A stretch of DNA of 64,000 nt, taken from the NCBI GenBank assembly GCA_028286645.1, contig JAQBRF010000002.1:58518-122517 (forward strand), in the 5' to 3' direction. The notes beneath the pieces are model-generated. The model was not told where the DNA came from, ran no database searches, and saw nothing but the letters and a program-made list of their open reading frames with translations. Made by a program: the position numbers and the translations under genes. Below are positions 13,223-54,618 of the stretch, piece by piece (the stretch's first letter is position 1; every line of letters starts with the position of its first letter). The stretch comes from Candidatus Nomurabacteria bacterium (GTDB lineage: Bacteria; Patescibacteriota; Minisyncoccia; Phycocordibacterales; UBA5272).

Positions 13223-13327
13223 GTGTGCCTACTCGGGACACCGGTCGAACTTTGAGTGAAATTGCCGAGTTGTTTTTAAGCGTCATTCCGCAGCCAACAT
13301 CTCCACGTCCTAACATCTCTACTCACT
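13223..13327. repeat. ~105-bp direct repeat copy 2
   Basis: gtgtgcctactcgggacaccggtcgaactttgagtgaaattgccgagttgtttttaagcgtcattccgcagccaacatctccacgtcctaacatctctactcac. Confidence 0.75.
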
Positions 13328-29045: not shown

Positions 29046-29145
29046 CGGTTCGATTCCTGCCGAGGGCTGCATATGTGAAAAGAAAAAACCACTTAATAAA
29101 ATAAATGGTTTTTTCTTTTCATGTGCCCTCGGCAGGAATCGAACC
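29046..29145. repeat. Long (~45-bp arms) inverted repeat made from the tRNA-Arg 3' end and its downstream palindrome
   Basis: ggttcgattcctgccgagggc...gaaaagaaaaaacca (29046..29091) mirrors 29106..29145; extra fragment gggcagggcaggaatcgc at 28963..28980. Confidence 0.7.
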
Positions 29146-29195
29146 TGCATCGCAAGTACCGCAAACTTGAATTCTATCCATTGAACTACGAGAGC
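29124..29195 (-). tRNA. tRNA-Arg (GCG)
   Basis: Reverse complement GCTCTCGTAGTTCAATGGATAGAAT...uuGCGgu...GCAGGTTCGATTCCTGCCGAGGGCA. Confidence 0.7.
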
Positions 29196-31493: not shown

Positions 31494-31537
31494 GGCCGTG
31501 GTGCAGTAAAGTAGCGCATAGGGGGTAGAAAATTAAA

Positions 31538-31566
31538 ATCGCCGAGCTGCTTCGCAGCTCGGCGAT
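31538..31566. terminator. Bidirectional hairpin terminator (ruvA + / 31573 gene -)
   Basis: atcgccgagctgc-ttcg-cagctcggcgat flanked by T-runs on both strands. Confidence 0.65.
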
Positions 31567-31572
31567 CGTTTT

Positions 31573-31881: not shown

Positions 31882-31990
31882 TGTTGAACTTACTACACAA
31901 CACTACAATTTAGTGCAAACTATGTCAAGTCGGACTTTATTATTTATTTTCCTGGAAAGTGAAGTAAGTCCACGAGCATGCTTATAAAGA
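31882..31990 (-). promoter_or_regulatory. Conserved ~100-bp upstream module (TTGACA-N17-TAGTGT promoter plus TTTCCTGGAAA palindrome), copy 1
   Basis: Matches 32471..32580: ttgaacttact...acactacaatttagtgcaaactatgtcaa...ttttcctggaaa. Confidence 0.6.
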
Positions 31991-32470: not shown

Positions 32471-32580
32471 ACTAGCCTCACGGTTGGTTGAACTTACTTA
32501 ATAACACTATAATTTAGTGCAGATTATGTCAATATAACTTTATCTAAGTATTTTCCTGGAAACTGACAGCTGAAAACTGT
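32471..32580 (-). promoter_or_regulatory. Conserved upstream module, copy 2
   Basis: See 31882..31990. Confidence 0.6.
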
Positions 32581-39637: not shown

Positions 39638-41755
39638 TTACACGAGTGACTTTTTGTCATCTTTGTAAGAAGCATATACGCTCTTAGCAAGAATGAAGAT
39701 AATGAATACTATCGCTATTAAAGCTAACCATTCAATGAGAGTGTCTGGAAGGAAACTTAATCCGCTTCCTCCTCCGATAACTTTCTTCGCTCCTGTATCT
39801 GTCGTAGCTGAAGTTGCTGGAGTCGCAATTGATCCTACGACATATGCTGTTACTTCGTCTTGAGTGTTTGACCCAGGGACTGTGTAGTTAACATATGATG
39901 TTGTAACAATTGATTTTCCTATCGGAGCATTTTTTGTAACCTTTCCTGTCCAAGTAAGTGTTCCTGTACTTCCGGCTTCTATTGAATCTAGATTAAGCGT
40001 TAATGTATGTGTCGCTATATCGTATGATCCGGCTGAAGTTGAAGTGAATTCAATTTCTTGCGGAATTGTTACTTTAATGATAACTCCGTTTACTTTTACG
40101 TCTGAAAGATTCTTATAAGTTAGTTTATATGTAACCGTTGATTCAGAACTTAGATTTCCAGATACTTTTTCTAATTGTAGAGAAACAAGTTTCTCTCCAT
40201 TTTGAAGCATTGTTGCAGAACTTTGGCTTGTTGTAGTTACGATTGAACCATCCACACAAACCACTTCGTTCTTTTTCACAACTGGCTTTTTCGCGATAGT
40301 CTTTGTTACTGTTACTGGTTTTACATATGTTACGGCCTTGCTCTTAGTTACGAAGCTTACGATTTCACCCTTAACTAGTCCATACTGATTTTGCATAACT
40401 GCTCTACAGTAGTATTTAGTTGCTGGCTTAAGGTTTGCTAGAACGTTTGAGAAGTTTACAGTTGAAGCTGATCCGATCTGAGCTGACGCTGTTGTGCGTC
40501 CTAGATTGGCAGTTTCACCGTATTCAAACCATCCAGTTGACTGTGCGCCATTAGCGATTAATCCTATTCCATTACATCTTGCTGAGTTGATAGTAACTTC
40601 TGTTACAACGCTTGTTACGACGTTATTGAACTTAACTACTGGAGGAGGAATTACTACTGGAGCTTGTGGACACTGTTGGTATACAGGAATACTTGTTCCG
40701 TTTGGACAGAACTTGAACTGTTGAGCACAAGTCTGTGTTGCAGGAATCCGCGATCCATCCCAACATGTCTGGTAAGTAATAACTGGAGGGTTAATGATTT
40801 GCTGACAAACTCCATTTACAAAGTTTGTATTTGAGGGACACTGAGTAACTGTAGTTACTGGAAGTGTGGTTGTACGTACACAAGATCCATTTATAGGAGC
40901 CTGTCCATCAGCACAAATTGTATTTGTAACTACTGGAATTGTATTTGTACGAGTACATGATCCATTGACTGGAAAACTTCCATCTGAACAACGAGTAGTC
41001 GTTACAGTGGGAATAGTAGTAATGATCGGAGTAGTTGGAGTAGTAATTACAGTAGGAGTGGTTATAATAGACGGAGTTGTATAACCTGTCCATGAAGTTG
41101 TCGGATAAACAACTGATGGAGTTGAAGTATAAACTGATCCATATGAAGTTCCGTATCCTGTAGAACCGTATGCTGTGGTTCCATATCCTATAGCTCCGTA
41201 AGTTGTGGGGTATGAAGAATAACTAGGAGTATAAACACCGCTCGGCATATAAACCCCGTTAGGATAACTAGTTGTTGTATTCCATGTTCCTATATCATAG
41301 GATCCAGTAGGAGATACAGTAGTGGAATTCCATGTTCCAGAGTCATACGAAGGCACGTTGGTATTCCAACTTCCAGTGTCATACGAAGGCACGTTAGTGT
41401 TCCAAGAACCTGTATCATAACTAGGCACGTTGGTATTCCAACTTCCTGTATCGTATGATGGTACGTTGGTATTCCAACTTCCAGTGTCATACGAAGGCAC
41501 GTTGGTATTCCAACTTCCTGTATCGTATGATGGTACGTTGGTATTCCAACTTCCTGTATCGTATGATGGTACGTTGGTATTCCAACTTCCTGTATCGTAT
41601 GATGGTACGTTGGTATTCCAACTTCCAGTGTCATACGAAGGCACGTTAGTGTTCCAAGAACCTGTATCATCCATACCGTCCGCAAATGCGAAAAGTGTAG
41701 ATTGCTGAATAGCGATAACTAGAAACAGTGTGATAATTTTTTTTGTTGTTTTCAT
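39638..41755 (-). CDS. Large cell-surface protein with ~10 tandem 12-aa repeats (DTGSWNTNVPSY), Thr/Pro-rich region and C-terminal TM anchor
   Basis: Signal peptide MKTTKKIITLFLVIAI; repeats visible at protein and DNA level; C-terminal hydrophobic helix plus KDDKKSLV. Confidence 0.7.
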   Translation of the reverse strand: MKTTKKIITLFLVIAIQQSTLFAFADGMDDTGSWNTNVPSYDTGSWNTNVPSYDTGSWNTNVPSYDTGSWNTNVPSYDTGSWNTNVPSYDTGSWNTNVPSYDTGSWNTNVPSYDTGSWNTNVPSYDTGSWNTNVPSYDSGTWNSTTVSPTGSYDIGTWNTTTSYPNGVYMPSGVYTPSYSSYPTTYGAIGYGTTAYGSTGYGTSYGSVYTSTPSVVYPTTSWTGYTTPSIITTPTVITTPTTPIITTIPTVTTTRCSDGSFPVNGSCTRTNTIPVVTNTICADGQAPINGSCVRTTTLPVTTVTQCPSNTNFVNGVCQQIINPPVITYQTCWDGSRIPATQTCAQQFKFCPNGTSIPVYQQCPQAPVVIPPPVVKFNNVVTSVVTEVTINSARCNGIGLIANGAQSTGWFEYGETANLGRTTASAQIGSASTVNFSNVLANLKPATKYYCRAVMQNQYGLVKGEIVSFVTKSKAVTYVKPVTVTKTIAKKPVVKKNEVVCVDGSIVTTTSQSSATMLQNGEKLVSLQLEKVSGNLSSESTVTYKLTYKNLSDVKVNGVIIKVTIPQEIEFTSTSAGSYDIATHTLTLNLDSIEAGSTGTLTWTGKVTKNAPIGKSIVTTSYVNYTVPGSNTQDEVTAYVVGSIATPATSATTDTGAKKVIGGGSGLSFLPDTLIEWLALIAIVFIIFILAKSVYASYKDDKKSLV
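41290..41655. repeat. 36-bp in-frame tandem repeat array (~10 units) inside the surface protein gene
   Basis: ggtacgttggtattccaacttcctgtatcgtatgat repeated with few substitutions. Confidence 0.85.
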
Positions 41756-41891
41756 ACCTTTATATAATTTATTAGGTGTAAGTATTATATCACGAAAGAA
41801 ATAAAAAGTCAAGGGGCAAAAGAAAACCGCCCTGGGGGGCGGTCTGGGGGTCGAACCTCGGGAGAGGCTCAGAGGGGTGTGGGCGCTTCGG

Positions 41892-42692
41892 TTACTTTAC
41901 CGCGCCGATGTGCTTGTAGGTGCTCTTGTCGTCGATGCCTTGCTTGGCGGCGACGCGGAACGACCACTGTTGCTCCGTCTCACCGTTGTTCGGCGCGACG
42001 ATCTCCACATCCGAGCAGTTCGCGGGTTTGCCGCTGATCTGCTTGGTTGCGTAGCAGTGCATCGGGCTTTGCGCCGACGAGTTCGGGTGGTACCAGCCCC
42101 AGAAGGTGCTGGCGTTCGCCGGAAACGACGGAAGCGGAGCCGAGCTCGAAGCAGTCCTTGCGGGCTGCACTGCCGGCGGAGATGCCGGACGATTACCGTG
42201 GGTCACGGTGGGGCGTTTGCACCCGAGAACCGCGGCACAGATGGCGTCAGACGTCATCTGTTGCTGCGGAGTGGAAGCCTTGAGCGCGAGCGCGTTCACG
42301 CTTCCTTGAAGGCCTTCAAGTGAGGCCTTGGTCGCGTCGGCGGTTTTCACCGCGGCTTCCGCTTGTTTTTTCGCGGTCGTCGCGTTGCTGTCCACGGCCT
42401 TGAACTCGTCGCTCGCGAGGGCCAGTGTTTTGGCTTTCTCGGTGACGCCTGCGACGGCGTTGTCGAAATTGCTATTGCTGGGCGTCGTGAACGCCAGGAG
42501 GATCGCGAGGATCATTGCGCCTACGCCGGCCGCGATCGCCAGATTCGCGCGAGTGTGGTCCGGGGAGGGAGCCAGATCTGAGGCGGCGTAGATCTTGCCG
42601 TCGTGGCCTTGAACGAAGACGCGCGTGTCTCCGGCCGCAACCATCTTAGTCACTTCTGCGTCGGTAAAGCCTTTCGGTTGGCGATTAGCCAT
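41892..42692 (-). CDS. GC-rich Ala-rich membrane-anchored protein with conserved Cys-containing C-terminal domain
   Basis: GC3-rich codons; SD GAGGTG; N-terminal cytoplasmic segment then TM helix (LAIAAGVGAMILAILLAF); C-terminal W.W...PM.C...K.I...C..V.AP..GET..QW shared with 42881..43963. Confidence 0.55.
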   Translation of the reverse strand: MANRQPKGFTDAEVTKMVAAGDTRVFVQGHDGKIYAASDLAPSPDHTRANLAIAAGVGAMILAILLAFTTPSNSNFDNAVAGVTEKAKTLALASDEFKAVDSNATTAKKQAEAAVKTADATKASLEGLQGSVNALALKASTPQQQMTSDAICAAVLGCKRPTVTHGNRPASPPAVQPARTASSSAPLPSFPANASTFWGWYHPNSSAQSPMHCYATKQISGKPANCSDVEIVAPNNGETEQQWSFRVAAKQGIDDKSTYKHIGAVK

Positions 42693-42761
42693 GGTTCACC
42701 TCTTAGGTTATGTGGTGGAACTCTGATAAGCGTTTGGAAATCCATTCGCTCGTTAATATGT

Positions 42762-42789
42762 AGTATACACTATTAAAAAGAATTGTCAA
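42762..42789 (-). promoter_or_regulatory. Consensus sigma70-type promoter TTGACA-N17-TGtATACT for 41892..42692
   Basis: Gene sense: cTTGACAattctttttaatagtgTATACT. Confidence 0.6.
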
Positions 42790-42880
42790 GTGATATATGA
42801 AATAAAAATAGTATAAAAAAGCCCTCCACTGTGGAGGGCTTCGACCAGGATTGGTCTGATGTGCGGAGGATCCGCTGGCG

Positions 42881-43963
42881 TTAGAGCTTTTCGGCTCTGA
42901 GCGCCCACTGATCACGCGTTTCGCCGGCGACCGGCGCGAGAACTTTCATCTCCGAGCAGAACGGCGGGTTGGGCGCATTGATCAGCTTTTCGACGACACA
43001 TGCCATCGGGTTCTGGGAGGTTGCCTTTCCCGGCTTCCATTTCCAGAGATCGACACCGTTTTCCGCCGGACGCGCCGCCGGAACGACAGTTCGCGTTACG
43101 CTCGCCGAGGAGGTTTGCGTTGCGGTCGATCCGCTTTGTGTCGTGACCACAGATGACGAGGTGGCAACTGCGCCTTCGACGAGCTCGGGTTTTACCGTAA
43201 GCCTGTCGCAGGTCGGCTTGTCTTTCACATATGCGACGACCCCTTGGGTGGGGAAGCTGCACGGGCTGAGACTTGCCGGCACGGTTTGGCGTTGCACCGT
43301 CGTGCGTTGCTGCGAAAACTCGCTGCCACCCAGCTGAACGGGCATATTGCCACCGTTTTCGCTGATGTTCGCGGGAAACGTCGCTGCGGGACGCATCGGG
43401 ATCGAGGTCTGAATGATCCGACCTTCGTCGCCATCGTTGACGATATACGGATCGCACCCGTAGGTGAGACCGTATGCAACTCCTACAGCGCCGCCGATTT
43501 TCGCACCGTCGACGAACTTGTGACGGGTGAATTTGGCGACCACTCCTCCGAAGAGGGCGGCTGCGGCACCGTCGACGAGCCCCGTCATTCCGCGATCCGA
43601 AAGCGAGCAGCGAACGCGTCGTCCGCCCATGTTCGCGGTAAACGGCTGACCGTACTGCACACCTTGCGGCATGAAGTAAGTCTGATTGCCGTACGCGAAC
43701 ACCGGCTGGTTCCCGATCATCGGAACAGCGTAGGATTGACCTGCGGAGCACGCGAGGTGTCCTTGCGGGCAATTCCACTGGCCGTTGACGAGAATGTTGG
43801 GTGCCGAACCTTGCTGTTGTCCCGTCATGGTCGGAACGACCATTTGGGCTTGCGTCCCGAAGGACGCGGCGGCGAGGGCAACTGCGAAAAGCGTGTTGAG
43901 CTTGTTCATGCGGTTCTCCTGAATTGACTTGGTACGGGGTCTTGTAGACGGACCAAAGGTCAA
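42881..43963 (-). CDS. GC-rich secreted protein, paralogous C-terminal domain to 41892..42692
   Basis: Signal peptide MNKLNTLFAVALAAASFGTQAQ; SD AGGAG; same C-terminal domain. Confidence 0.55.
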   Translation of the reverse strand: MTFGPSTRPRTKSIQENRMNKLNTLFAVALAAASFGTQAQMVVPTMTGQQQGSAPNILVNGQWNCPQGHLACSAGQSYAVPMIGNQPVFAYGNQTYFMPQGVQYGQPFTANMGGRRVRCSLSDRGMTGLVDGAAAALFGGVVAKFTRHKFVDGAKIGGAVGVAYGLTYGCDPYIVNDGDEGRIIQTSIPMRPAATFPANISENGGNMPVQLGGSEFSQQRTTVQRQTVPASLSPCSFPTQGVVAYVKDKPTCDRLTVKPELVEGAVATSSSVVTTQSGSTATQTSSASVTRTVVPAARPAENGVDLWKWKPGKATSQNPMACVVEKLINAPNPPFCSEMKVLAPVAGETRDQWALRAEKL

Positions 43964-43982
43964 TCTATCAAGGTATGAGTAC

Positions 43983-44010
43983 AGTATACACTATTCACAG
44001 GATTTGTCAA
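43983..44010 (-). promoter_or_regulatory. Consensus sigma70-type promoter TTGACA-N17-TATACT for 42881..43963
   Basis: Gene sense: cTTGACAaatcctgtgaatagtgTATACT. Confidence 0.6.
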
Positions 44011-44319
44011 GGGCACTTGATTAAAAGTATTCAGATAGGATGGCCTACCAGAAAGGGCCAGAATAGGTTGATAAATAAGGATTATTTGTGTCCTTTATGT
44101 GTAAACCAGTCCCCTAAAAGCTAATTTCTCGAGTCTAAACAATAATAAGGAGGATTGGGAGTATTTCTTTACTTTCGTTCTGCCTTCTTTCTTTAAATTA
44201 TTTAAATTCTGTTTAGTTTTTAATATTTCGGGTTTAGTTTTGATCTATTTATAAATTTAACTTAAAAACAAATCCTTCTCCCCTACACGCTATACGCTAC
44301 ACGCTATATACTGTTTTTT

Positions 44320-46020
44320 ATGGCTATTACATTTGATGACGCGGTACAAAATCATGAGTTGGAAGACTTACGCAAAAACGAAGAGGAGGAATTAGTAAAA
44401 ATTCTTTCAGATAAATACGGACTTCCGTATATTGACCTGCGCGGGCTGGCTCCGGAACCAGACGCTATGCAAGTAATAAAAGAAGAAGACGCCAGAGAAG
44501 TGGGGCTCGCGCCTTTTAAAATAGTTGGCAGGAAACTTTATATAGCCACAATCTCCCCGGGAAATCCAAGAATGGAGGAGCTTCTTCGTCCACTAGAAAC
44601 CAGAGGAACTGAATTAATTTTATTTCTTTGTTCTCACGCATCACTTAACCATGTGCTTTCTAGATATGTGGATTTAAATAAAGGATCAAAAGTAGAAAGC
44701 GGAATGCTTGAGCTTACGAAAGAAAAAATCCACGGGCTCATGGAAAAGTTTAATGACGTTGATGAATTAAAAAAAACCTTTGACGAAATATCACATTCCC
44801 AGGTTCTATATAAAACCACAAGAATTATAGAAGTCATAATCGCCGGAGCGCTTAAATTCGACGCGAGCGATATACATATAGAACCAGAAGAAGACAAGGT
44901 AAGATTGAGATATAGATTAAATGGAAATTTGATCGACATAACTTTCTTTGATTACGAGCTGTTAAAAAACATCACGAGCAGATTAAAGCTTTTGTCCGGT
45001 CTTAAGCTCTCAACATCTGCTAACGCACAAGATGGAAGATTTAGCATCGACTTAGATGAGGTAGAGGTGGAAGTGCGCGTGTCTGTAATACCTTCAAACT
45101 ATGGAGAAGGATTTGTGATGAGATTGCTTGACCCAAGGCACTCTGTGACAGATTTAAACAACATCGCATTTTCTCCAAAACTCCGCGCTCTTGTAGAATA
45201 TTCGCTTAGCAAGCCAAACGGAGTTATTCTTACAACCGGCCCGACAGGGTCCGGTAAGACTACCACTTTATATGCGTTTTTACACAAGATGTATAACCCT
45301 GAATTAAAAGTAATTACAATTGAGGACCCGGTAGAATACCATCTGGAAGGAATTACTCAAACTCAAGTAGAGGAAGAAAAAGGATATACATTCGTTGCTG
45401 GATTACGAGCCGCACTTCGTCAAGATCCTGACATAATAATGGTGGGAGAAATCCGAGACACAGACACAGCAAAAGTCGCGATCAATGCTGCGCTCACGGG
45501 GCATTTAGTTTTCTCAACACTTCACACCAATACCGCCGCTGGAACTATACCGCGATTAATCGACTTAGGAGTAAACCCAAAAGTTATCGCTTCTGCCCTA
45601 TCGCTCGCCCTTGCTCAAAGACTCGTAAGAAGCCTTTGCAATGAATGCAAGCAAGAATATGAAAGCAGTGAAAAAGAGTCCCGTGTAATTACGAATGTTT
45701 TAGGAGAAATGAAAATAGCAGGAAAAGAGGAGTCCATGATGGGACACACCCCTCTTGTTACTTATAAATTATTTAAACCTGTGGGCTGCAGCAAATGTGG
45801 AGGAACTGGATATTCTACTCGAATAGGAATATTTGAAGCGATTAGCATGAATGCGGATATTGAAAAGATTTTAATCACGAATCCTAGTGAAAGAGAAATA
45901 CGGGAAGTTTCTAAAAACCAAGGAATCCCAACGCTTAAGGAGGATGGTATAATTAAGATGCTCGAGGGACTTACTTCGTTTGAGGAATTGGGCAAGACAA
46001 TTGATCTTTTCGGAGAATAA
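44320..46020 (+). CDS. pilB: Type IV pilus assembly ATPase PilB / GspE-family secretion ATPase
   Basis: Walker A GPTGSGKTT; Asp and His boxes; tetracysteine CNEC...CSKCGG; terminator aaaccc-tttc-gggttt at 46068..46086. Confidence 0.9.
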   Translation: MAITFDDAVQNHELEDLRKNEEEELVKILSDKYGLPYIDLRGLAPEPDAMQVIKEEDAREVGLAPFKIVGRKLYIATISPGNPRMEELLRPLETRGTELILFLCSHASLNHVLSRYVDLNKGSKVESGMLELTKEKIHGLMEKFNDVDELKKTFDEISHSQVLYKTTRIIEVIIAGALKFDASDIHIEPEEDKVRLRYRLNGNLIDITFFDYELLKNITSRLKLLSGLKLSTSANAQDGRFSIDLDEVEVEVRVSVIPSNYGEGFVMRLLDPRHSVTDLNNIAFSPKLRALVEYSLSKPNGVILTTGPTGSGKTTTLYAFLHKMYNPELKVITIEDPVEYHLEGITQTQVEEEKGYTFVAGLRAALRQDPDIIMVGEIRDTDTAKVAINAALTGHLVFSTLHTNTAAGTIPRLIDLGVNPKVIASALSLALAQRLVRSLCNECKQEYESSEKESRVITNVLGEMKIAGKEESMMGHTPLVTYKLFKPVGCSKCGGTGYSTRIGIFEAISMNADIEKILITNPSEREIREVSKNQGIPTLKEDGIIKMLEGLTSFEELGKTIDLFGE

Positions 46021-46375
46021 TCAGAACTAGATAATAGATGTTAGACATTAGATTTTAGACAAAACAAAAACCCTTTCGGGTTTTGGTTTAAAATCTACCG
46101 TATATATAAATCTAGCAGATAATTGAAAGCCCATAGACCTCTAAGCAACCCCTTGGTGAAGAACGATCCTTCATGAGGATAGGCACAGTACGTGACAAGC
46201 ACGACCAGACCGTCCTTAGAAATAGAAAGTGGGAAGAAACTTCCCGATTGTCTTAGAGATATATAGGTTTTCAATGAAGTGAAAAATAAAACACTAACTT
46301 ATTAGTGTCACCTTTCACCTCACACAATTATATCACATAAAATACTTTTGTCAAATCCCAAATCTCTATCAATTT

Positions 46376-47359
46376 ATGACCCCCATTATTCCAACAATAG
46401 ACAATGAGGAAACCAGGCACTTGGACAGCGCTCTTCGCCCTTCTAAATTTTCAGATTATATAGGTCAGGACACCATAAAAAATAATCTACACATACTTTT
46501 AACTGCCGCCCGCGAAAGAAATACTCCGCCGGAACACATACTTTTATACGGACCTCCCGGACTAGGGAAAACCACTCTTGCTCATTTAATAGCTAAAGAA
46601 TTAAATGCAAATTTGAAACTTTCAAGCGGCCCAGCTATTATGAAAGTCGGAGACTTGGCCGCGATTCTCACAAACCTTTCTCCTGGAGATATTTTATTTA
46701 TAGATGAAATACACCGCTTAAATAAAATGATAGAAGAAGTGCTTTACCCCGCGATGGAGTCTGGGAAACTCGATATCGTTATAGGCAAAGGTCCGGCGGC
46801 GCGCACTATTCAGCTTGATCTTCCGCCTTTTACATTAATAGGCGCCACAACTCGCATGTCTTTACTTTCCTCCCCTCTTCGCTCGCGCTTTTCGGGCGGA
46901 GTATATAGATTGCAATATTATACAGAAGATGAGATCGCGCAAATAGTAAAAAATAGCGCGAAGGTTTTAGGGGCAGAGCTACCACAGGACGCTGCACATG
47001 AAATTGCTAAGAGATCTAGGTTTACTCCGAGAATCGCTAACTATTATTTAAAAAGAGCAAGAGATTACGCCCAAGTGCATAAAGCAAATATTGACAAAGA
47101 AGTTGTAGACACGGCGCTGTCAATGCTTGAAATCGATGAGTTCGGCATAGGGGTGTCTGAAAGAATGGTGCTTGATGCTTTGGTAAACACTTTTAGCGGG
47201 GGGCCTGTTGGATTAAACACTTTATCGGCCGCAACCGGAGAAGAAGAAGATACGATAGAAGATGTAACTGAGCCGTATTTGATTCAAATAGGAATGCTGG
47301 AGAGAACCCCGCGAGGAAGAAAGGCGACAGATAAAGCAATTAAATATTTTAAAAAATGA
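46376..47359 (+). CDS. ruvB: Holliday junction DNA helicase RuvB
   Basis: LRPSKFSDYIGQ...LLYGPPGLGKTTLA. Confidence 0.9.
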   Translation: MTPIIPTIDNEETRHLDSALRPSKFSDYIGQDTIKNNLHILLTAARERNTPPEHILLYGPPGLGKTTLAHLIAKELNANLKLSSGPAIMKVGDLAAILTNLSPGDILFIDEIHRLNKMIEEVLYPAMESGKLDIVIGKGPAARTIQLDLPPFTLIGATTRMSLLSSPLRSRFSGGVYRLQYYTEDEIAQIVKNSAKVLGAELPQDAAHEIAKRSRFTPRIANYYLKRARDYAQVHKANIDKEVVDTALSMLEIDEFGIGVSERMVLDALVNTFSGGPVGLNTLSAATGEEEDTIEDVTEPYLIQIGMLERTPRGRKATDKAIKYFKK

Positions 47360-47856
47360 GTTCTGTAAGAATTTTAGGTATTGATCCTGGATATGATCGA
47401 TTGGGTGTGTGTGTTTTAGATACTGAGCAAGGAAAAGAAACTTTGGTTTTTTCTACTTGCATTACCACTAGCAAGAAAGAATCCTTTGAGGAAAGGCTTT
47501 TAAAGGCAGGCGATGAGCTAGAAAACATAATAAAAGAATATTCTCCGAACGAAGTTTCAATTGAAAAGATTTTTTTCACCAGAAGCAAAACAACCGCGAT
47601 GCATGTGGCGCAAATCCGCGGAGTATGTATTTACTTAACTCAAAAACATAAACTACTTATGGCTGAGTACTCGCCTCCTGAAATAAAATTATCTGTTGCA
47701 GGGCATGGCGGCGCCTCTAAAGACGATGTCTCCTTTATGGTTTCGAGGATTTTAAAATTAGACCAGACAAAAAACAAAACCCTTGATGATGAAATGGATG
47801 CTATCGCTATCGCTCTTACCCATAGTTCTCACAGAAAAATGAAAGGCTGGAAATAG
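47356..47856 (+). CDS. ruvC: Crossover junction endodeoxyribonuclease RuvC
   Basis: ILGIDPGYDRLGVCVLD; overlaps ruvB stop by 4 nt. Confidence 0.85.
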   Translation: MSSVRILGIDPGYDRLGVCVLDTEQGKETLVFSTCITTSKKESFEERLLKAGDELENIIKEYSPNEVSIEKIFFTRSKTTAMHVAQIRGVCIYLTQKHKLLMAEYSPPEIKLSVAGHGGASKDDVSFMVSRILKLDQTKNKTLDDEMDAIAIALTHSSHRKMKGWK

Positions 47857-47929
47857 TTTCATAAGGATTTTGGCTCTAGGGCTTGCACATATCTAAATAA
47901 GGTGATATCTTTTCATACATCACATTTGT

Positions 47930-48106
47930 ATGCTTATTGAAGACGATTCAAAAATACCTGCAGAAATAAACCCTGACGCTCTAGAAGAAGCCATGCTTGA
48001 TGACTTTTTAGTGGCAGAGGAGTCCGCCGTCATAGTTGTAGAGGAAGAAGACGAGCGAGAGGACGAACTTGATATTGCTTTTAAGGACGACGACGAGAGC
48101 TGGTAG
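47930..48106 (+). CDS. Small highly acidic protein (58 aa)
   Basis: MLIEDDSKIPAEINPDALEEAMLDDFLVAEESAVIVVEEEDEREDELDIAFKDDDESW; below track size cutoff; bidirectional terminator 48169..48194 follows. Confidence 0.3.
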   Translation: MLIEDDSKIPAEINPDALEEAMLDDFLVAEESAVIVVEEEDEREDELDIAFKDDDESW

Positions 48107-48211
48107 GTCGACGAGTGAAGGCGAGGAAGATACTGAGGCCAGCAGGCCGAATGTAAAAAAATAAAACAAGAGCGGTGCCACAGGCGCCGCTCTTTTGTCT
48201 TTATTCTGTAA

Positions 48212-49405
48212 TTAATCCACGATCACTCGGACAAATCTCTTCTTTCCGATTTTTAAAGTTATATTCGTTGCTTTTTCTTTTGGGTCTGTAATTTCACCGC
48301 CAGCAATATTTGTGACAGCTTTTGCTTCTACGAGCCTTCTCCATTCTGACTTAGAAGGCACTACCGCGTTTTCAACCAAGATATCAACAAGCTCTTTATC
48401 TTTCGTGGTATGAATCTCTAAAATTTCATCAGGCACCCCGCCTTTTTGAAAAGCTTCTACCCATGAATTTTTTGCAAGCCCTGCTTCTTTTTCTCCGTGA
48501 TAAATAGTGACTACTTCTGTTCCTAATCTCATTTTTACATCTCTTGGGTTTGCCCCATCTTTTAATTCTTTTTCAATCTTTCTAATTTCTTCCAAGTCCA
48601 GATCTGTGCAAAGTGTGAAATATTTTATAATTAGATCATCCCTGATAGACATAATCTTTCCGAACATATCAAAAGGCTGATCCACTATTGTTATTACATT
48701 TCCCCACGAAGTAGACATTTTTCTGCCGTCCGTTCCTTCTAGCATAGAAAGGGTTATTATATTTTGCTTAGGCATTCCATAAACCTCTTGAATAACCCTG
48801 CCCGCCTTTAAGTTAAACAGCTGGTCAAAACCGCCGATTTCTACATCGGCCTTAACCGCCACTGAATCATATCCTTGCATGATTGGATATAAAAACTCCC
48901 GAAGAGAGATTTCTTTCCCTTGATCATATCTATCTTTGAAATTTCGTCGTGCGAGCATCTGCTGAACAGTGAATGATTCAGCGAGACTAGCAACATCAGA
49001 AAAAGTAAGCTTTGAAAGCCAGTCGTTATTATATAAGAATTCTATTTTAGATATATCTAAAATCTTTGAGATTTGATTTTTATAATCTTTTAGATTTTCG
49101 TCTATTTCAGACCGGGCAAGCATGGGGCGTTTATCGGACTTGTCCGATGCGTCTCCGACCTGCGCTGTGAAATCTCCCACGATAAACACTACTTGGTGCC
49201 CCAACTTTTGAAATTCACGGAGTTTTCTTATTGGGATAGCTCGCCCTAAGTGAATTTTCGGGCCAGTTGGATCTACTCCCAGCTTAATACGCAAAACTTT
49301 TCCAGACAAAAGCTCTTTTTTTAGTTCTTCTTTAACTATTACATCTTCTACTCCTCGAGAAAGAAGTTCGTCGATCCGCGCTTCATCCACAATGATTTTA
49401 TCCAT
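48212..49405 (-). CDS. tyrS: Tyrosine--tRNA ligase
   Basis: Class I HIGH-region equivalent (KIHLG) and KMSTS motif; C-terminal S4-like domain. Confidence 0.9.
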   Translation of the reverse strand: MDKIIVDEARIDELLSRGVEDVIVKEELKKELLSGKVLRIKLGVDPTGPKIHLGRAIPIRKLREFQKLGHQVVFIVGDFTAQVGDASDKSDKRPMLARSEIDENLKDYKNQISKILDISKIEFLYNNDWLSKLTFSDVASLAESFTVQQMLARRNFKDRYDQGKEISLREFLYPIMQGYDSVAVKADVEIGGFDQLFNLKAGRVIQEVYGMPKQNIITLSMLEGTDGRKMSTSWGNVITIVDQPFDMFGKIMSIRDDLIIKYFTLCTDLDLEEIRKIEKELKDGANPRDVKMRLGTEVVTIYHGEKEAGLAKNSWVEAFQKGGVPDEILEIHTTKDKELVDILVENAVVPSKSEWRRLVEAKAVTNIAGGEITDPKEKATNITLKIGKKRFVRVIVD

Positions 49406-49453
49406 CTAAATATACTAACACGGGCGCCTTTTTTTTGAAATTATGGTACTATT

Positions 49454-51628
49454 TTGTTTATGTCTGTAAACCCCTCATTACGAAAGAAAACTCTTCGAAA
49501 AAAACTTTTTCGAGAGTTTCTTTTGAGTTTTATTGCTTTAATGATAATCGTGCTTGCTCTGGGAATTTCATGGGTGGCGAATCTAGAGCTTCCTGATTTT
49601 AACAATTTCGAAAATAGGGCAGTTGCAAATTCAACGAAAATTTATGACAGAACCGGAAAAATAGTTCTTTATAGCATATATGACAATATAAAACGCACCC
49701 AAGTTCCAATTACCGAAGTCAGCCCTTATATAAAACAAGCCACTGTTTCTATTGAAGATTCAAGTTTTTATGAGCATCATGGCTTTAAAATCACCTCTTT
49801 TATAAGAGCAATGCTTGCAAATTTGCAAAGTGGGGGCTTTTCCCAGGGAGGGTCTACAATTACTCAGCAGGTGGTTAAAAATGCACTTCTTACTCGAGAT
49901 AAGACAATCAGCCGAAAGCTAAAAGAAATCGTTCTTTCTCTTAAACTTGATCGTCAGGTTCCTAAGGATATGATTTTACAGATATACTTAAATGAAAGCC
50001 CCTACGGAGGAACTATTTATGGCGTGGAAGAGGCCTCTATGACGTACTTCGGAAAACCTTCTAAGGATGTAACTTTAACGGAGGCAGCCTATCTTGCGGC
50101 CCTTCCCCAGTCTCCAACATACTATTCTCCTTTTGGTAAACACCAAGATGCTTTGGAAAAAAGAAAGAACTTAGTTTTAGAGAGAATGTATGAACTTGGA
50201 TACATAACAGAGGCTGAGAAAAACACTTCTCAAGCCGAAACAATTAAATTTGAAAAATCTGGAGAAAACACTGGCAAGGCACTTCACTTTGATATGTACA
50301 TAAGAGAATATCTGGAACAAAAGTATGGAACTGATATGGTGCAAAATGGTGGATTAAAAGTTATTTCAACCATTGATTACGAACTACAAAAGAAAATGGA
50401 AGCTGTTGTAAAGGAGGGGGCGCTCTTAAATGCAAAAACAGTTAATGCGTCAAACGCTGCACTTGTCGCAATTGATCCTAAAACAGGTGAAATCCTATCA
50501 ATGGTGGGGTCTCGCGATTTCTTTGATACAGAAATACAAGGACAGTACAATATAGCAACCGCGCTCCGCCAGCCGGGGTCTTCATTTAAGCCTTTTGTGT
50601 ATGCTGCGGCTTTAAATCTTGGCTACACCCCTGAAACCATACTGTTTGATGTGCCAACACAATTCAGCACTGCGTGTGATGCATATGGAAATCCGCTTGC
50701 TGGATCAAAAGCCTCTTCTTGTTATATGCCAAATAACTTTGACGACGCTTTTCGAGGACCGGTCTCCTTAAGAAGCGCGCTCGCTCAATCTCTAAACATT
50801 CCTTCCGTTAAACTTCTTTACTTGGTGGGACTAAATAAAGCAATATCACTTGCTCAAGACATGGGACTTTCAACAATTACAGACCCTTCTCGATACGGAC
50901 TTTCGTTAGTCCTTGGAGGCGGGGAAGTTACTTTGCTTGAATTAACAAATGCATATGGAGTATTTGCTAATAATGGAGTTTATTCAAAACCACAAGGAAT
51001 ACTAGAAATACGAGACAGAGACAATAACCTTTTAGAAAAATTTACACCTGAGCAAAAACAAGTTCTCCCCGAACCAGTCACTTCCGATATTTCAAGCATG
51101 TTGTCAGACTTCGAAGCACGACACACAACAAACCAGGCGTTTAAGTTCGGAGATAGGCCTGTGGCGCTCAAAACAGGTACTACAAACGACTATCGCGATG
51201 TTTGGGTAGTTGGATATACCCCCTCACTTGTAATTGGCATGTGGGCGGGAAATAACGACAACACTCCAATCGCTAAAAAAGTTTCCGGACTTGTCCTGGT
51301 TCCGATTTGGCATAAAGCTCTTGTCGAAGCTATGGGAACTTCTTCCATAGAATATTTCCCTGAGCCGTTACCAAATACTTCTACAAAACCAATACTTAGA
51401 GGAGACTACTGCGCCCCTGACGGAATTCATACCATCCTTCAGTATGTAAAGAAAAGTGATCCAGAGGGACCCGCTCCGGAGAATCCAGCCTCAGACCCTC
51501 AATATTCTCTTTGGGAAACAGGGTTGCAGAATTGGTTAGCAGCCAATCCTCTTTCTTGTGGAATGTCAAATACTCAAGAAAACACCACCCAGACAAATGT
51601 CGTTATCGCAACTACCACGGTGCAATAA
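49454..51628 (+). CDS. Class A penicillin-binding protein (glycosyltransferase + transpeptidase)
   Basis: GT51 motif EDSSFYEHHGF; SSFKPF (SxxK) and KTGTTND motifs. Confidence 0.9.
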   Translation: MFMSVNPSLRKKTLRKKLFREFLLSFIALMIIVLALGISWVANLELPDFNNFENRAVANSTKIYDRTGKIVLYSIYDNIKRTQVPITEVSPYIKQATVSIEDSSFYEHHGFKITSFIRAMLANLQSGGFSQGGSTITQQVVKNALLTRDKTISRKLKEIVLSLKLDRQVPKDMILQIYLNESPYGGTIYGVEEASMTYFGKPSKDVTLTEAAYLAALPQSPTYYSPFGKHQDALEKRKNLVLERMYELGYITEAEKNTSQAETIKFEKSGENTGKALHFDMYIREYLEQKYGTDMVQNGGLKVISTIDYELQKKMEAVVKEGALLNAKTVNASNAALVAIDPKTGEILSMVGSRDFFDTEIQGQYNIATALRQPGSSFKPFVYAAALNLGYTPETILFDVPTQFSTACDAYGNPLAGSKASSCYMPNNFDDAFRGPVSLRSALAQSLNIPSVKLLYLVGLNKAISLAQDMGLSTITDPSRYGLSLVLGGGEVTLLELTNAYGVFANNGVYSKPQGILEIRDRDNNLLEKFTPEQKQVLPEPVTSDISSMLSDFEARHTTNQAFKFGDRPVALKTGTTNDYRDVWVVGYTPSLVIGMWAGNNDNTPIAKKVSGLVLVPIWHKALVEAMGTSSIEYFPEPLPNTSTKPILRGDYCAPDGIHTILQYVKKSDPEGPAPENPASDPQYSLWETGLQNWLAANPLSCGMSNTQENTTQTNVVIATTTVQ

Positions 51629-51629
51629 A

Positions 51630-51860
51630 CTATTTAAGCGTAAACTTATTTTCTTCTAAGATTTTTTTTATACCCTTTTGGAAAAGCAGGCTTTTTTTAA
51701 CTGATGTCGTATTTAAACTTACCTCCTTTTTCGTTACTTGTATTTCCTCTTCTTTTAAAGATACGCCCGTCTTTTCTTTTATTTCATTAATTATTTGCTC
51801 CTTGGTCTTCTTTTGATTAATAAGAGCTTTTATATGCTTTTCAAATAGACCTAAATCCAT
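51630..51860 (-). CDS. Small hypothetical protein
   Basis: 76 aa Lys/Glu-rich ORF between the PBP gene and dnaN. Confidence 0.35.
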   Translation of the reverse strand: MDLGLFEKHIKALINQKKTKEQIINEIKEKTGVSLKEEEIQVTKKEVSLNTTSVKKSLLFQKGIKKILEENKFTLK

Positions 51861-51861
51861 A

Positions 51862-52953
51862 CTATCTATTTAGTGGCATTAGAAGATAGGTTAAAGTTAC
51901 GTCTTCTTTCCCTTTTATAAACATGGGTCTGTTAGATGTGGTGAACAAGCAGTTTATATTGTCTCCTTTTATATGAGGAAAAATTTCCAAGAAGTATCGG
52001 TTGTTATATTTTACTTCAATATCTTCACCTTCTTTCTCTACATGGATGGTGTGGGTTATTTGACCAACGGATTCGTTTTTACTGTGCAAAGTAAGTTTAT
52101 CTCCTGTAAAAATACATTCTACTTGAGAATATTGTTCGTTAAAAAAGGTAGTAAGGGTTAGAGCTTTTTGTAATTCTTCTTTAGATAAAGACACCGTCGT
52201 TAGAAACTCTTTAGGAAAGAGTTGTTGATAGTCCGGAAACTGTCCTGTGGTCGTATGAATAGAAAGAGTAAGATTTGAAGATGAAACAGAAAGAATGCTT
52301 TCGTAAACAGAAAAACTTAAATCCCCTTCTTCCTCATTTAGGATTTGCAGTATATCCCCTATATGTTTTTGAGGAATCAAGAGAGAGCAGTCAAAAGATG
52401 TTTCGTTTGGGATAGTCTTTTCAACCAATCTATATGAATCTGTGGCAACAGAAAAAATAAGGTTATTTTTCGTATAAACATAAACAGAAGCAATTTCCGG
52501 TTTTATTTCGGTAGTTGCCGCAGCAAAAGAAACTTCTTTTAAGAGGGTGTTAATACTTTCTTTGGTCAGAGTCCCAATAGATTCTCCTTGATTAGGAAGT
52601 TTAGGGAAATCTTCATATGGGGTGGTTTTTATTTCAATAACCCCTTCTTCTGTGGTGATAGAAAAGACTCCTTCAATTAATTCACACATTAAAACAATGT
52701 CAGATGATTGAAAAGTTGATAAAATCCTTAAAAAGGTTTCCCCTAAAATAACACATGTTCCGTTTGTCATTCCTTTTACTGGAATACTTTTCTCACAAAA
52801 TATTTCAAGGTTTGTCGCTCTTAAACTTAACATGTGTCCGTCTAATTCAAGGTGTATATTTTGAAGATAATTTTGAGATTGTTTTTTACTTCTGGCGCGT
52901 GACACTTGTTGAACGGCTTTTATAAAGACATCTCCTTTGCATTCGAATTTCAT
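51862..52953 (-). CDS. dnaN: DNA polymerase III beta sliding clamp
   Basis: Length, position downstream of dnaA, MKFECKGDVFIKAV start. Confidence 0.85.
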   Translation of the reverse strand: MKFECKGDVFIKAVQQVSRARSKKQSQNYLQNIHLELDGHMLSLRATNLEIFCEKSIPVKGMTNGTCVILGETFLRILSTFQSSDIVLMCELIEGVFSITTEEGVIEIKTTPYEDFPKLPNQGESIGTLTKESINTLLKEVSFAAATTEIKPEIASVYVYTKNNLIFSVATDSYRLVEKTIPNETSFDCSLLIPQKHIGDILQILNEEEGDLSFSVYESILSVSSSNLTLSIHTTTGQFPDYQQLFPKEFLTTVSLSKEELQKALTLTTFFNEQYSQVECIFTGDKLTLHSKNESVGQITHTIHVEKEGEDIEVKYNNRYFLEIFPHIKGDNINCLFTTSNRPMFIKGKEDVTLTYLLMPLNR

Positions 52954-53271
52954 AAGGAAAGTATACCTTGTAGGTAAAAAACTGGATAGCTAAAAATTAA
53001 GTAAGCATCTGCCTCAGCTCCTAACTAAGGATATCTTCTGTAAGGTATATATAATATATGATATTAAGTATAGGTCTGTGGAGTGTGGGGATAAGGCACA
53101 AAATCCTTAATTTACAGTCTATTTTAGAAAATCTAGAATACATGAAATGAAAGGAATCGATGTATATTTTGTTTATAAAAACACAAAATCACTTAGATTT
53201 TCTTAATAAGAAACGCTTTATTCATGAGTTATTCTTTTGTTATCCACAAAGATTTCCACAACAAAAATAAA
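52954..53271. promoter_or_regulatory. Putative oriC (dnaA-dnaN intergenic region) with DnaA boxes and AT-rich unwinding element
   Basis: Perfect TTATCCACA at 53240..53248; TTATCCCCA (reverse) at ~53085; AT-rich aaggtatatataatatatgatattaagtata. Confidence 0.55.
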
Positions 53272-54618
53272 TTAAGCAATCATTTGGCGGATATCTTCAA
53301 TTTCCCTGCTTAGCTGAGGATTATCTTTTAAAAGACCTTTTATTTTTTCATAAGAATGTATCACTGTCGTGTGGTCTCTCCCCCCTAGGCGGTCTCCTAT
53401 CATGGGGTATGAAATATCAAAATCTTCCCTAAGGAGATACATAACTATTTGTCGAGGCTTAACAACATCCTTCCTTCTGGTTTTGTTGTAAATGTATACG
53501 TCTGGAATATGGTAATAATCAGCGATAAGTTTAACAATTTCAGGAATTGAAATGCTTTTCTTTGCTCTTGCGCTATTTTTTAAGAGATTTTTTACATCAA
53601 GCAGGGTTATGGCTTGGTTTTTCATTTGAATGTGTCCGAAAATGGAGGTCATAACCCCCTCCAACTCTCTAATGTTTCCTTGAATTGATTCAGCAACGTA
53701 TTCAAGAACTTCCTGAGGGATTTTATCTCTATATTCTTTAGTCTTGGACTGTAAAATCGCAAGACGAGATTCAAAAGGCGGAACATTTATATCTACGATC
53801 ATCCCTTGGTTGAACCGAGAGCGCAGCCGGTCTTCTAGTCCTATGATTAAATTCGGATGAACATCTGAAGAAAATATAATCTGCTTATTCATCTCATAAA
53901 GAGAATTAAATAAATGGAACAACTCATCCTGAGTTCTCTCTTTTCCATTAATAAATTGGATATCGTCCATTATAAAAACATCATATTTGCGATATTTTTC
54001 CTTAAAGACATTTATCTTGTTTAAATTCGTGGCATTAACCATGTCCATATAAAATTTTTCAAGGGAAGTGTAAAAGATTTTTCGTTCAGGGTATTTCTTT
54101 TTAACTGTGTTTCCTATAGCCTGCATCATGTGGGTCTTTCCTAGTCCTGTAGGCCCATATACAAAAAGCGGATTATAAACGATCCCAAGGCCATTTATGA
54201 CTGCCTGAGATGATGCGTACGCAACTTCGTTAAAAGACCCGACTATAAAATTATCAAAAGTATATCGAGGGTTTAATCCGTCGTCTTTATTTACATATAA
54301 ATCCTGCAGTGGAAGAGTTTGTCCGGTAATGGCTATGTGCTGAGCCTTTTTTTGAAGTGTTTCTGGTTTTACAACTGTAAAAACAACCGACCTAACTCCT
54401 TCGTGTATCATCCGGAGTATACGGAGAATAAATTTATGATATTTTTGATTGAGCCAGTCCTTAACAAACTCATTAGGCACTCCTATCGTCACCTCCCCCT
54501 CTTTGTAATCTATAATTCTTGTGTTTTTAAACCAAGTATTGAAGTTAACTCTAGAAAGCTCAATCTCAATTTGAGACAAGGCACTATTCCAAAGCTGTTG
54601 GTAATCCATAATTCTCAA
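53272..54618 (-). CDS. dnaA: Chromosomal replication initiator DnaA
   Basis: AAA+ GPTGLGKTHMMQAIG; C-terminal DnaA-box binding domain. Confidence 0.9.
   Translation of the reverse strand: MRIMDYQQLWNSALSQIEIELSRVNFNTWFKNTRIIDYKEGEVTIGVPNEFVKDWLNQKYHKFILRILRMIHEGVRSVVFTVVKPETLQKKAQHIAITGQTLPLQDLYVNKDDGLNPRYTFDNFIVGSFNEVAYASSQAVINGLGIVYNPLFVYGPTGLGKTHMMQAIGNTVKKKYPERKIFYTSLEKFYMDMVNATNLNKINVFKEKYRKYDVFIMDDIQFINGKERTQDELFHLFNSLYEMNKQIIFSSDVHPNLIIGLEDRLRSRFNQGMIVDINVPPFESRLAILQSKTKEYRDKIPQEVLEYVAESIQGNIRELEGVMTSIFGHIQMKNQAITLLDVKNLLKNSARAKKSISIPEIVKLIADYYHIPDVYIYNKTRRKDVVKPRQIVMYLLREDFDISYPMIGDRLGGRDHTTVIHSYEKIKGLLKDNPQLSREIEDIRQMIA

Follow-up and report, generated by a model that had tools for sequence, protein, structure and literature searches.

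We analyzed a stretch of 64,000 nucleotides (hereafter the window) from a Candidatus Nomurabacteria bacterium, focusing on a GC-rich island at 41.8-44.0 kb that carries two genes, which we term gene A (JWN37_139) and gene B (JWN37_138). The window lies on a 251.7-kb contig of a metagenome-assembled genome (MAG), has a GC content of about 39% and contains ordinary cellular genes such as polA, ruvA/B/C, a gene for a pilB-type ATPase, a Mur ligase gene and seven tRNA genes. The genes that surround the island are pilB, ruvB, ruvC, polA and a gene coding for a DUF11 surface protein. Loci of relatives, designated by L numbers, were retrieved with PilB and PolA as anchors, which gave 4 genome loci and 20 metagenome loci. 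The PilB proteins of these relatives are 69-80% identical to that of the window and 64-88% identical to each other, and the PolA proteins show 66-76% identity. The coordinates of all features are collected in Table 1.

Table 1. Features of the window discussed in the text, numbered from its first nucleotide
Feature	Position	Strand	Description
Gene A (JWN37_139)	42881..43909	-	342 aa
Gene A promoter	43983..44010	-	TTGACA-16 nt-TATACT, 11/12 consensus positions
Gene A 5' leader, AT-rich	43910..43976	-	5'-proximal hairpin, motif TTGATAGATTGAC, Shine-Dalgarno site AGGAG at 43916-43920
Gene A intrinsic terminator	42818..42842	-	11-bp stem, 6 GC pairs, T run
Gene B (JWN37_138)	41892..42692	-	266 aa; GC 0.62, GC3 0.76
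Gene B promoter	42762..42789	-	TTGACA-16 nt-TATACT, 11/12 consensus positions
Gene B 5' leader	42693..42755	-	Hairpin, fold z = -2.8; Shine-Dalgarno site GAGGTG at 42697-42702
Gene B intrinsic terminator	41824..41845	-	
DUF11 surface-protein gene, native composition	39638..41755	-	Signal peptide, 9 x 12-aa repeats, DUF11 (Pfam 5e-08), C-terminal membrane anchor
DUF11 repeat-protein gene promoter	41784..41812	-	TTGACT-17-TATAAT, with TG
pilB-type ATPase gene (MshEN + T2SSE)	44320..46020	+	Usual upstream flank; synteny anchor
Small GC-rich cassette, secreted 98 aa	31573..31869	-	Own promoter, leader, Shine-Dalgarno site, terminator (31537-31567)
Second small GC-rich cassette, secreted 92 aa	32192..32470	-	About 90-nt promoter-leader module duplicated from neighbor cassette
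GC-rich ORFan cassette, 137 aa	34303..34716	-	GC 0.59; variable mur ligase-fpg gap
GC-rich cassette, 66 aa	29324..29524	-	Adjoins tRNA-Arg(GCG)

An earlier note, made from the letters of the sequence alone, had proposed that at least five GC-rich segments of the window are candidate horizontally acquired genes with foreign codon usage, possibly derived from a high-GC host. All five segments that it lists exist, lying at 12.2-13.95, 29.25-29.55, 31.5-31.9/32.2-32.5 and 34.25-34.8 kb besides the island at 41.8-44.0 kb. The composition of the island is also as described, with the analyses of GC content, of GC at third codon positions (GC3) and of codon usage agreeing on a foreign-looking preference for GC-ending codons relative to the AT-rich remainder (z ~6; GC3 0.69-0.76). 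Specifically, 500-bp windows over 42001-44000 have a GC content of 0.54-0.63, while values elsewhere are ~0.39, and the coding sequences (CDSs) of gene B and gene A reach 0.623 (z = 6.5) and 0.603 (z = 6.0), respectively, when referred to 1-kb windows outside the island (mean GC 0.390, sd 0.036, max 0.505). The GC3 values of 0.76 for gene B and 0.69 for gene A compare with 0.25-0.41 in native genes. Codon fractions in the island and in native genes, respectively, are 0 and 0.37 for ATA, 0 and 0.28 for TTA, 0.05 and 0.41 for AGA, 0.61 and 0.09 for CTC, and 0.71 and 0.22 for CCG, and at the protein level Ala makes up 14% of island residues and 6.5% of native residues with Ile at 3% and 8%.

An island of this kind could in principle be an artefact, either an assembly chimera, a contaminating high-GC fragment, or GC-rich non-coding DNA or RNA that has been read as open reading frames (ORFs). 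Long ORFs do open in other frames of the island as well, as is the usual by-product of GC-rich DNA, but the order GC3 > GC1 > GC2 is seen in the annotated minus-strand frame only. The ORFs of gene A and gene B are real since their products have a C-terminal domain in common at the protein level and have homologues elsewhere. Furthermore, window positions 41641-53909, and with them both island junctions, recur at 100% identity in a Logan assembly made independently from SRR13312974, the same architecture occurs in at least 12 independent assemblies, and AT-rich promoters and leaders of native type are interleaved with the GC-rich CDSs. Searches of Rfam, at gathering thresholds over the window and at E-value thresholds over the island, gave only tRNAs elsewhere plus two sub-threshold chance matches; the island is not an RNA gene. 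An artefact of any of these kinds therefore has next to no probability.

Both island genes are organized as stand-alone units, each with its own promoter, a leader of ~65-70 nt, a Shine-Dalgarno (SD) site and a hairpin terminator. The promoters of gene A, gene B and the DUF11 gene are the three best consensus matches within 28-46 kb, and those of gene A and gene B are 86% identical to each other over 29 bp. The earlier note had described the two island promoters as near-consensus TTGACA-N17-TGtATACT; the 11/12 match stands at both sites, but the spacer is 16 nt and the TG is off the canonical extended -10 register. The same promoter module, CTTGACAAA...TGTATACT, is also found ahead of island genes in relatives, and the overall promoter-leader-SD-terminator layout is the same across 25 cassettes of relatives plus 5 more. 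The leader of gene A folds with -15.5 kcal/mol (z = -2.2), and its motif TTGATAGATTGAC is found again in the leaders of L005, L032 and L034. Cassette leaders with a 5'-proximal hairpin were observed for both window genes and in L003, L004, L005, L014, L032 and L034; the TTGATAGATTGAC motif is common to gene A leaders, and the fold z-scores of cassette leaders are modest, at -0.1 to -2.8. This hairpin and motif could be an mRNA-stabilizing or regulatory element.

Regarding the encoded proteins, gene A starts at ATG 43909 behind AGGAG rather than at TTG 43963, which gives a product of 342 aa equal to the deposited protein P0001. The gene A protein consists, in order, of a signal peptide, a Cys-containing region, a glycine-zipper helical hairpin (residues 103-148), a disordered linker and a two-Cys C-terminal domain (~285-342). 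Its signal is of the signal-peptidase-I type (AQA; ...FGTQAQ-M) with no lipobox Cys; a lipobox is present in the gene A homologue of L014 and in other small island lipoproteins of L002, L010 and L016. Homologues of gene A keep the stretch 'IPQG..GQPF...GG...RCS..DR', the Gly/Ala-rich hairpin, then 'GC.P..V.DG', the linker and the C-terminal domain. The gene B protein has a small N-terminal cytoplasmic domain, a transmembrane helix (44-68), a long Ala-rich helix (79-139), a linker and a two-Cys C-terminal domain (~196-255), and in its homologues a short N-terminal domain ('DG..YA..DL.P.P') is likewise followed by a transmembrane helix, then by an Ala-rich coiled coil and by a linker that leads to a C-terminal domain of the gene A type. 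Thus, the expectation in the earlier note that some of the GC-rich genes encode secreted or surface proteins agrees with the predicted signal peptide of the gene A product and the predicted transmembrane helix of the gene B product.

The C-terminal domains of the two proteins are 36% identical over 55 aa (E = 1e-10). In an alignment of this domain the residues W, P, C, P, C and W are invariant, within the pattern W-x-W...NP..C...P..CS...GET..W..R, and this ~55-aa two-Cys domain is a newly recognized one. It also occurs behind other N-terminal modules in proteins P0012, P0018 and P0019, and its association with differing N-terminal modules indicates that the domains are shuffled. AlphaFold2 models are confident for only parts of each protein, these being the two-helix hairpin (pLDDT ~90) and C-terminal domain for gene A, and the N-terminal mini-domain with the transmembrane helix, the first part of the long helix and again the C-terminal domain for gene B. 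The C-terminal domain is modeled as three strands plus a helix (pLDDT 92-95), and the Gly/Ala-rich two-helix hairpin is present in the model of the gene A protein. Pfam searches with both window proteins down to E = 10 gave nothing useful; for the gene A protein there was no Gly-zipper match, and the only family below E = 10 was Romo1 at E = 1. Among 28 gene A homologues, Gly-zipper_YMGG matched 8 (best 8.6e-07), with 6 to 8 of the 28 matching Gly-zipper_YMGG, Gly-zipper_Omp or Rick_17kDa_Anti.

We explored the distribution of the island by examining the corresponding slot between pilB and the DUF11 gene in relatives. A GC-rich island of 1.5-2.3 kb (GC 0.48-0.63, with flanks of 0.36-0.46) is present in every relative contig that reaches this slot (12 genomes; slot-covering loci L002/L023, L003, L004, L005, L010, L014, L015, L016, L019, L021 and L024, which stem from metagenomes of lake, deep Baikal, groundwater and other origin), so that there is no relative reaching the slot in which the island is absent from the syntenic site. 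Most of these relatives hold homologues of the gene A and gene B pair. In a word-indexed search of 5.8 billion proteins, gene A and gene B each returned only themselves, whereas a full HMMER search with gene A over 1.84 billion cluster representatives gave 41 matches at E <= 1e-3. None of the 41 is informatively named and one is labeled Candidatus Paceibacterota. The genomic contexts of 9 of the 41 (P0001, P0003, P0008, P0009, P0010, P0013, P0018, P0031 and P0033) were looked up, and all are Nomurabacteria-like AT-rich contigs with the same anatomy or synteny. Specifically, four of the five longer match contigs have the gene beside pilB and the fifth (P0009, in L037) has it before the DUF11 gene and beside the gene for ribosomal protein L5; on the short contigs of P0031 and P0018, AT-rich DNA surrounds a gene with the same promoter-leader-SD-terminator anatomy, and the short contig of P0033 shows only the terminator, having too little upstream sequence. 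Across the two protein searches there was no homologue in any high-GC or non-Paceibacteria organism, and neither the 41 HMMER matches nor the 9 contexts point to a candidate donor lineage with homologues around the Candidate Phyla Radiation (CPR) sequences.

These results bear directly on the proposal that the island came into this genome recently from a high-GC donor, which might be the host, and was then equipped with native promoters. The strongly atypical composition and codon usage would fit such an event, as would the ORFan status of both genes in the word-indexed search and the matches of Gly-zipper 2TM domains, which are common in Proteobacteria, to gene A homologues. However, homologous genes occupy the same slot in all relatives that reach it, no homologue from outside the clade was found among the HMMER contexts examined, and the GC content of the island follows that of the recipient genome. 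Furthermore, the GC boundary lies at the ATG and not upstream of a donor ribosome-binding site, and there are no mobility genes or flanking repeats at the island, where nothing is repeated apart from the 29-bp promoter and the terminator stems. Recent acquisition is thus very improbable, and the part of the earlier note that treated 41.8-44.0 kb as a candidate insert, possibly from a high-GC partner or host, does not hold given the homologous island at the same slot in relatives and the lack of a high-GC homologue. The protein searches likewise revealed no donor homologue for gene A or gene B, the only named member being from Candidatus Paceibacterota.

Although the island is fixed in position, its sequence is exchanged within the clade. 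This is most evident from two near-identical strains represented by L036 and L003, which have no mismatches in 786 bp of pilB or in the adjacent spacer and 1 mismatch over the first ~660 bp of gene A. Divergence then starts sharply at the first codons of the gene A C-terminal domain, continues through gene B at 14.5% of nucleotides (synonymous pS 0.27, nonsynonymous pN 0.11) and stops ~200 bp downstream. This is a replaced tract of ~1.4 kb that carries the gene A C-terminal domain and gene B as one unit. In a larger sample, of 36 genome pairs, the identity of the gene A core bears no relation to that of PilB (r = 0.00). For example, L004 and L032 are 88% identical in PilB and 33% in the gene A core, and L030 and L038 are 64% and 48% identical, respectively. 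The two C-terminal domains of L021 share 70% of their amino acids and 78% of their nucleotides, a resemblance that indicates a recent duplication or conversion. No silent or donor copy of island DNA, as would serve pilin-type antigenic variation or as the template of a diversity-generating retroelement, is present within the window, and the island as a target of a diversity-generating retroelement was rejected, there being no second island copy in the window and no reverse transcriptase among the neighboring genes. The idea of horizontal acquisition is consequently right in one respect, as exchange is real and alleles and cassettes are swapped among Nomurabacteria, and wrong in another, as there is no sign of a high-GC host donor.

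The high GC content of the island is a property of its coding sequence. A GC meta-profile of 33 cassettes runs at 0.28-0.37 in the promoter and leader, rises to ~0.6 within 15-45 nt after the ATG, remains level to the stop codon, drops to ~0.5 across the terminator stem and reaches 0.26-0.33 beyond it. Across genomes, the GC content of the island rises with that of the flanks (r = 0.78, n = 12) at an offset of +0.12 to +0.22, the genomes being related and thus not phylogenetically independent. GC3 is 0.6-0.77 in most lineages, well above that of the flanks, even though their PilB proteins are 20-36% different, a divergence at which synonymous sites should be saturated. In the L036/L003 tract the AT/GC differences, which are unpolarized, are balanced by direction at 50 vs 44. 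Furthermore, the lineage-specific cassettes described below (GC 0.54-0.59) do not reach the GC content of the conserved island. The tracking of the flanks, the balanced differences, the high GC3 despite saturation and the higher GC of the conserved island together argue for maintenance in place and not for a fresh import or a decaying relic.

The relic possibility merits consideration, namely that a high-GC donor contributed the genes to an ancestor of the clade, that they have been inherited and exchanged since, and that their GC content is slowly decaying. The spread of GC values across lineages (0.43-0.66), with gene B of L004 almost native, is what such decay might produce, and domains of the Gly-zipper family are found widely beyond the CPR. 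However, with PilB proteins that differ by 20-36% and island proteins that are only 16-56% identical, there has been enough change to erase a synonymous relic, yet GC3 remains at 0.6-0.77. Neither the balance of AT/GC differences between recently diverged alleles nor the excess GC of the conserved island over presumably younger lineage-specific cassettes is expected of a relic, and we regard ancient acquisition as unlikely, although less so than the recent event.

Two general causes of high GC were also rejected. Codon selection for high expression is contradicted by the low GC3 of ribosomal protein genes (0.21-0.25 in L037; 0.38 for S20) and of the strongly promoted DUF11 gene (0.26), and translational selection is further ruled out by the shifted GC1, GC2 and amino-acid content of the island. 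Amino-acid content alone is also insufficient given that the DUF11 gene has a GC2 of 0.51 yet a GC3 of 0.26.

The GC-rich genes also differ from native genes in how their translation appears to start. An SD-like motif is present ahead of 6/6 island genes and only 2/55 native ORFs, while a -10 hexamer located 3-12 nt ahead of the start is present in 16/55 native genes and 0/6 island genes; these counts rest on mechanical ORF starts and are approximate. The contrast drawn in the earlier note between canonical SD sites on GC-rich genes and mostly SD-less native genes is thus supported. Native starts located 5-12 nt past an extended -10 box (TGnTATACT or TATAAT) with no SD are seen, for example, at 3421, 4498, 5322, 7123, the 26286-side starts and 60877, a pattern in the sequence that suggests that leaderless or near-leaderless mRNAs may be widespread in this Nomurabacteria genome. 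The SD sites do not serve as a mark of foreign origin, as the note had taken them to be, because the same layout of SD, long leader and GC-rich CDS is found in every relative. They are most simply read as a consequence of gene layout, in which a leadered, GC-rich and hence more structured mRNA would need an SD site.

Similar GC-rich cassettes are found at other positions of the window. Two small cassettes lie in a 1.1-kb stretch between ruvA and the mur ligase gene, and in front of them (window 31890-31960 and 32480-32560) a module of ~90 nt, TTTCCAGGAAAATA...TTGACATA.TGCACTAAATT.TAGTGTT...AGTAAGTTCAAC, is nearly duplicated ahead of two unrelated small ORFs; this module looks like a reusable expression adaptor. 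In eight distinct assemblies of relatives (L009, L011, L017, L018/L019, L021, L023, L025 and L026) the ruvA-mur gap is 6-120 bp, and since ruvA and mur are close in relatives the stretch in the window is a lineage-specific insertion. Here, the description of 31.5-32.5 kb as an insert is therefore borne out, the cassettes being absent between ruvA and mur in these eight assemblies, and no donor can be named because there is no detectable homologue in the loci of relatives. The same absence of homologues in those loci applies to the small cassette ORFs generally. The ORF at 34303-34716 matches only itself among 5.8 billion proteins, a different GC-rich cassette occupies the mur-fpg gap of L025 (3874-4398), and alignment of this gap between L011 and L025 revealed non-homologous content with no clean insertion boundaries. 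Likewise, a different GC-rich cassette (L023 18100-18516) lies beside the same tRNA-Arg(GCG) that adjoins the 66-aa cassette. The term insert is justified for the mur-fpg and tRNA-Arg cassettes too, again with no donor nameable. The remaining segment, at 12174-13800, is moderately GC-rich (0.47-0.54) and holds ORFs at 12174-12560 and 12549-13013, the latter coding for a helical, acidic protein of 154 aa, and a terminator is located at 13039-13060; the 12.2-13.9 kb segment is without the TTGACA promoter anatomy of the other cassettes. Note that the tRNA-Arg(GCG) itself (window 29123-29195) is kept across the clade (L009, L011, L021, L023 and L025). In bacteria, CGY codons are usually decoded by tRNA-Arg(ACG), the anticodon of which is modified to ICG.

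Phage morons are self-contained units of promoter, gene and terminator that deviate in base composition and lie inserted between conserved genes, and the cassettes could be morons or remnants of a higher-GC Nomurabacteria phage or mobile element. They have exactly this unit anatomy and compositional contrast, with one gene behind its own promoter and ahead of its own terminator, and at ruvA and mur they separate genes that are neighbors in relatives. They also occupy several variable slots, namely the tRNA-Arg, the mur-fpg gap, the ruvA-mur interval and a position beside rplE in L037. Unlike morons, however, they reside on a cellular chromosome with core housekeeping genes as flanks, there is no integrase, phage gene or other phage context nearby, and the position of the main locus is conserved clade-wide. 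A tblastn search of 50,697 phage records gave no match, and a scan of IMG/VR with a narrow alignment of the C-terminal domain (A4) gave no relative. The promoter modules also look native because the DUF11 gene of native composition uses a similar near-consensus promoter, which counts against a phage source. We consider a phage or mobile-element origin improbable.

The genes that flank the island exhibit variation of their own. The DUF11 gene is the constant downstream neighbor of the island, even in L037 where the block adjoins the ribosomal protein L5 gene, and this arrangement indicates that the constant partner of the island is the DUF11 gene and not pilB. A tandem repeat within the DUF11 gene (41343-41670) comprises 9.1 copies of a 36-bp unit coding for YDTGSWNTNVPS, and the Logan assembly breaks within this repeat; DUF11 proteins of relatives carry other repeat units (YDYNY.., GIYTSDPS.., YNYTSPSVS). 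In L037 (4956-10443) the ribosomal-protein cluster is interrupted, with a gene of native composition for a 542-aa secreted protein between the L24 and L5 genes, and the GC-rich module and DUF11-like gene come after the L5 gene. Additional ORFs are located between pilB and the island in L030 (8500-9776), where a 147-aa ORF is accompanied by one for a 270-aa protein that contains an SLT (lytic transglycosylase) domain, and in L003 (4220-4783) and L036 (879-1442), which have a 187-aa ORF of GC 0.46. The two copies of this 187-aa ORF differ by 6 clustered changes, all of which are non-synonymous with 0 synonymous.

Several known systems resemble the island in part. O-antigen and capsule loci and marine flexible genomic islands are hypervariable, atypical in composition and swapped by recombination in conserved flanks. 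As in these loci, the slot of the island is fixed between conserved genes, its products belong to the envelope, its alleles diverge much more than the flanks do, its recombination breakpoints are sharp, its genealogy does not follow that of the core genome and its composition is atypical across species. Loci of that type are typically below genome GC and code for sugar-pathway enzymes, whereas here GC is raised by 15-22 points in the CDSs only, and the products are two small non-enzymatic proteins from monocistronic genes with their own promoter and terminator in an ultra-small CPR bacterium. In polymorphic toxin and adhesin loci (CdiA-CT/CdiI, Rhs) a C-terminal domain is replaced along with the gene downstream of it. 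The island shares with them a conserved N-terminal part and, as seen between L036 and L003, a tract that runs from the boundary of the C-terminal domain through the whole downstream gene. It differs from them in having no toxin or pre-toxin motif (no Pfam match), a C-terminal domain of only ~55 aa, and a downstream protein, that of gene B, which bears the same domain type and not an unrelated immunity fold. Finally, in comparison with Gly-zipper 2TM proteins (Gly-zipper_YMGG, Gly-zipper_Omp, Rick_17kDa_Anti; SlyB/Pcp, TraT), the gene A protein matches none of these models, has no lipobox, and has extra Cys-containing N-terminal and two-Cys C-terminal domains; the organism is assumed to be without an outer membrane. 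In light of these comparisons we rate the locus as a hypervariable surface locus whose cassettes resemble morons and whose GC enrichment is limited to the CDSs and persists across the clade. Literature searches found no published description of these cassettes.

We therefore consider it probable that 41.8-44.0 kb is a hypervariable envelope-protein locus common to the sampled Nomurabacteria (Paceibacteria) clade, and not a foreign insert peculiar to this genome. The locus consists of two stand-alone cassettes upstream of the DUF11 gene, in each of which a strong promoter of the sigma-70 type and a structured, AT-rich leader with a strong SD precede a GC-rich CDS and its hairpin terminator. The product of gene A would be a secreted glycine-zipper hairpin that is probably membrane-inserted and possibly oligomeric as are proteins of the SlyB/TraT type, and that of gene B would be a type-II membrane protein with a long coiled-coil stalk. 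The gene A C-terminal domain and the whole of gene B are swapped together between strains via homologous recombination. We infer that the two proteins form a matched surface pair that may bind each other or a common variable target together with the DUF11 protein, and that the locus may be under diversifying or frequency-dependent selection arising from phage or from recognition of a host or partner. GC-richness inside AT-rich genomes might be kept by selection on the CDS or mRNA, or by GC-biased fixation tied to frequent recombination.

Several observations weigh against this reading of a native, clade-wide envelope locus. The correlation between island and flank GC comes from 12 genomes that are kin to each other, contexts were inspected for only 9 of the 41 HMMER matches, and an unsampled high-GC reservoir may exist. 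Slot content differs in L010 and L016, which have another secreted protein and a small lipoprotein, so that the content of the slot is replaceable. The gene B protein has no fold match in the PDB, and the structure searches overall gave no significant match. Each of the two proposed causes of the GC bias also has its own difficulty. If GC-biased conversion were responsible, enrichment would be expected throughout the exchanged tract, yet leaders and promoters inside this tract are as AT-rich as other spacers, which argues against pure conversion bias. Selection on the CDS, in turn, would have to explain raised GC at three codon positions together with shifted amino acids. Finally, gene B of L004 (8177-8806) is near native with a GC of 0.43 and GC3 of 0.40, and its partner gene A has a GC of 0.53, indicating that the GC bias can decay gene by gene.

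A more far-reaching interpretation, which we offer only tentatively and regard as rather doubtful, is that the cassettes constitute a distinct compositional class of accessory envelope genes. A process specific to the locus or to the class, be it GC-biased fixation coupled to recombination or selection for GC-rich mRNA, would keep the CDSs of this class 15-25 GC points above the genome, and they would be expressed by a second, SD-dependent and leadered mode of initiation in a genome that is mostly SD-less and often leaderless. The gene A and gene B pair might then function as a swappable surface specificity module for interaction with host or phage.

Base composition is routinely used to call foreign DNA. 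In this case a strong GC anomaly marks a native clade-wide locus, and thus inference of transfer or of a host donor from composition can mislead in the CPR. The locus is a sequence-defined candidate for variable surface determinants of uncultured Paceibacteria, comprising an envelope pair that lies beside a DUF11 adhesin-like protein and usually pilB. With a GC enrichment that is CDS-limited, clade-persistent and tracks the genome, and with its contrast between SD-led and SD-less genes, it is also a natural system for the study of compositional heterogeneity in a small bacterial genome.

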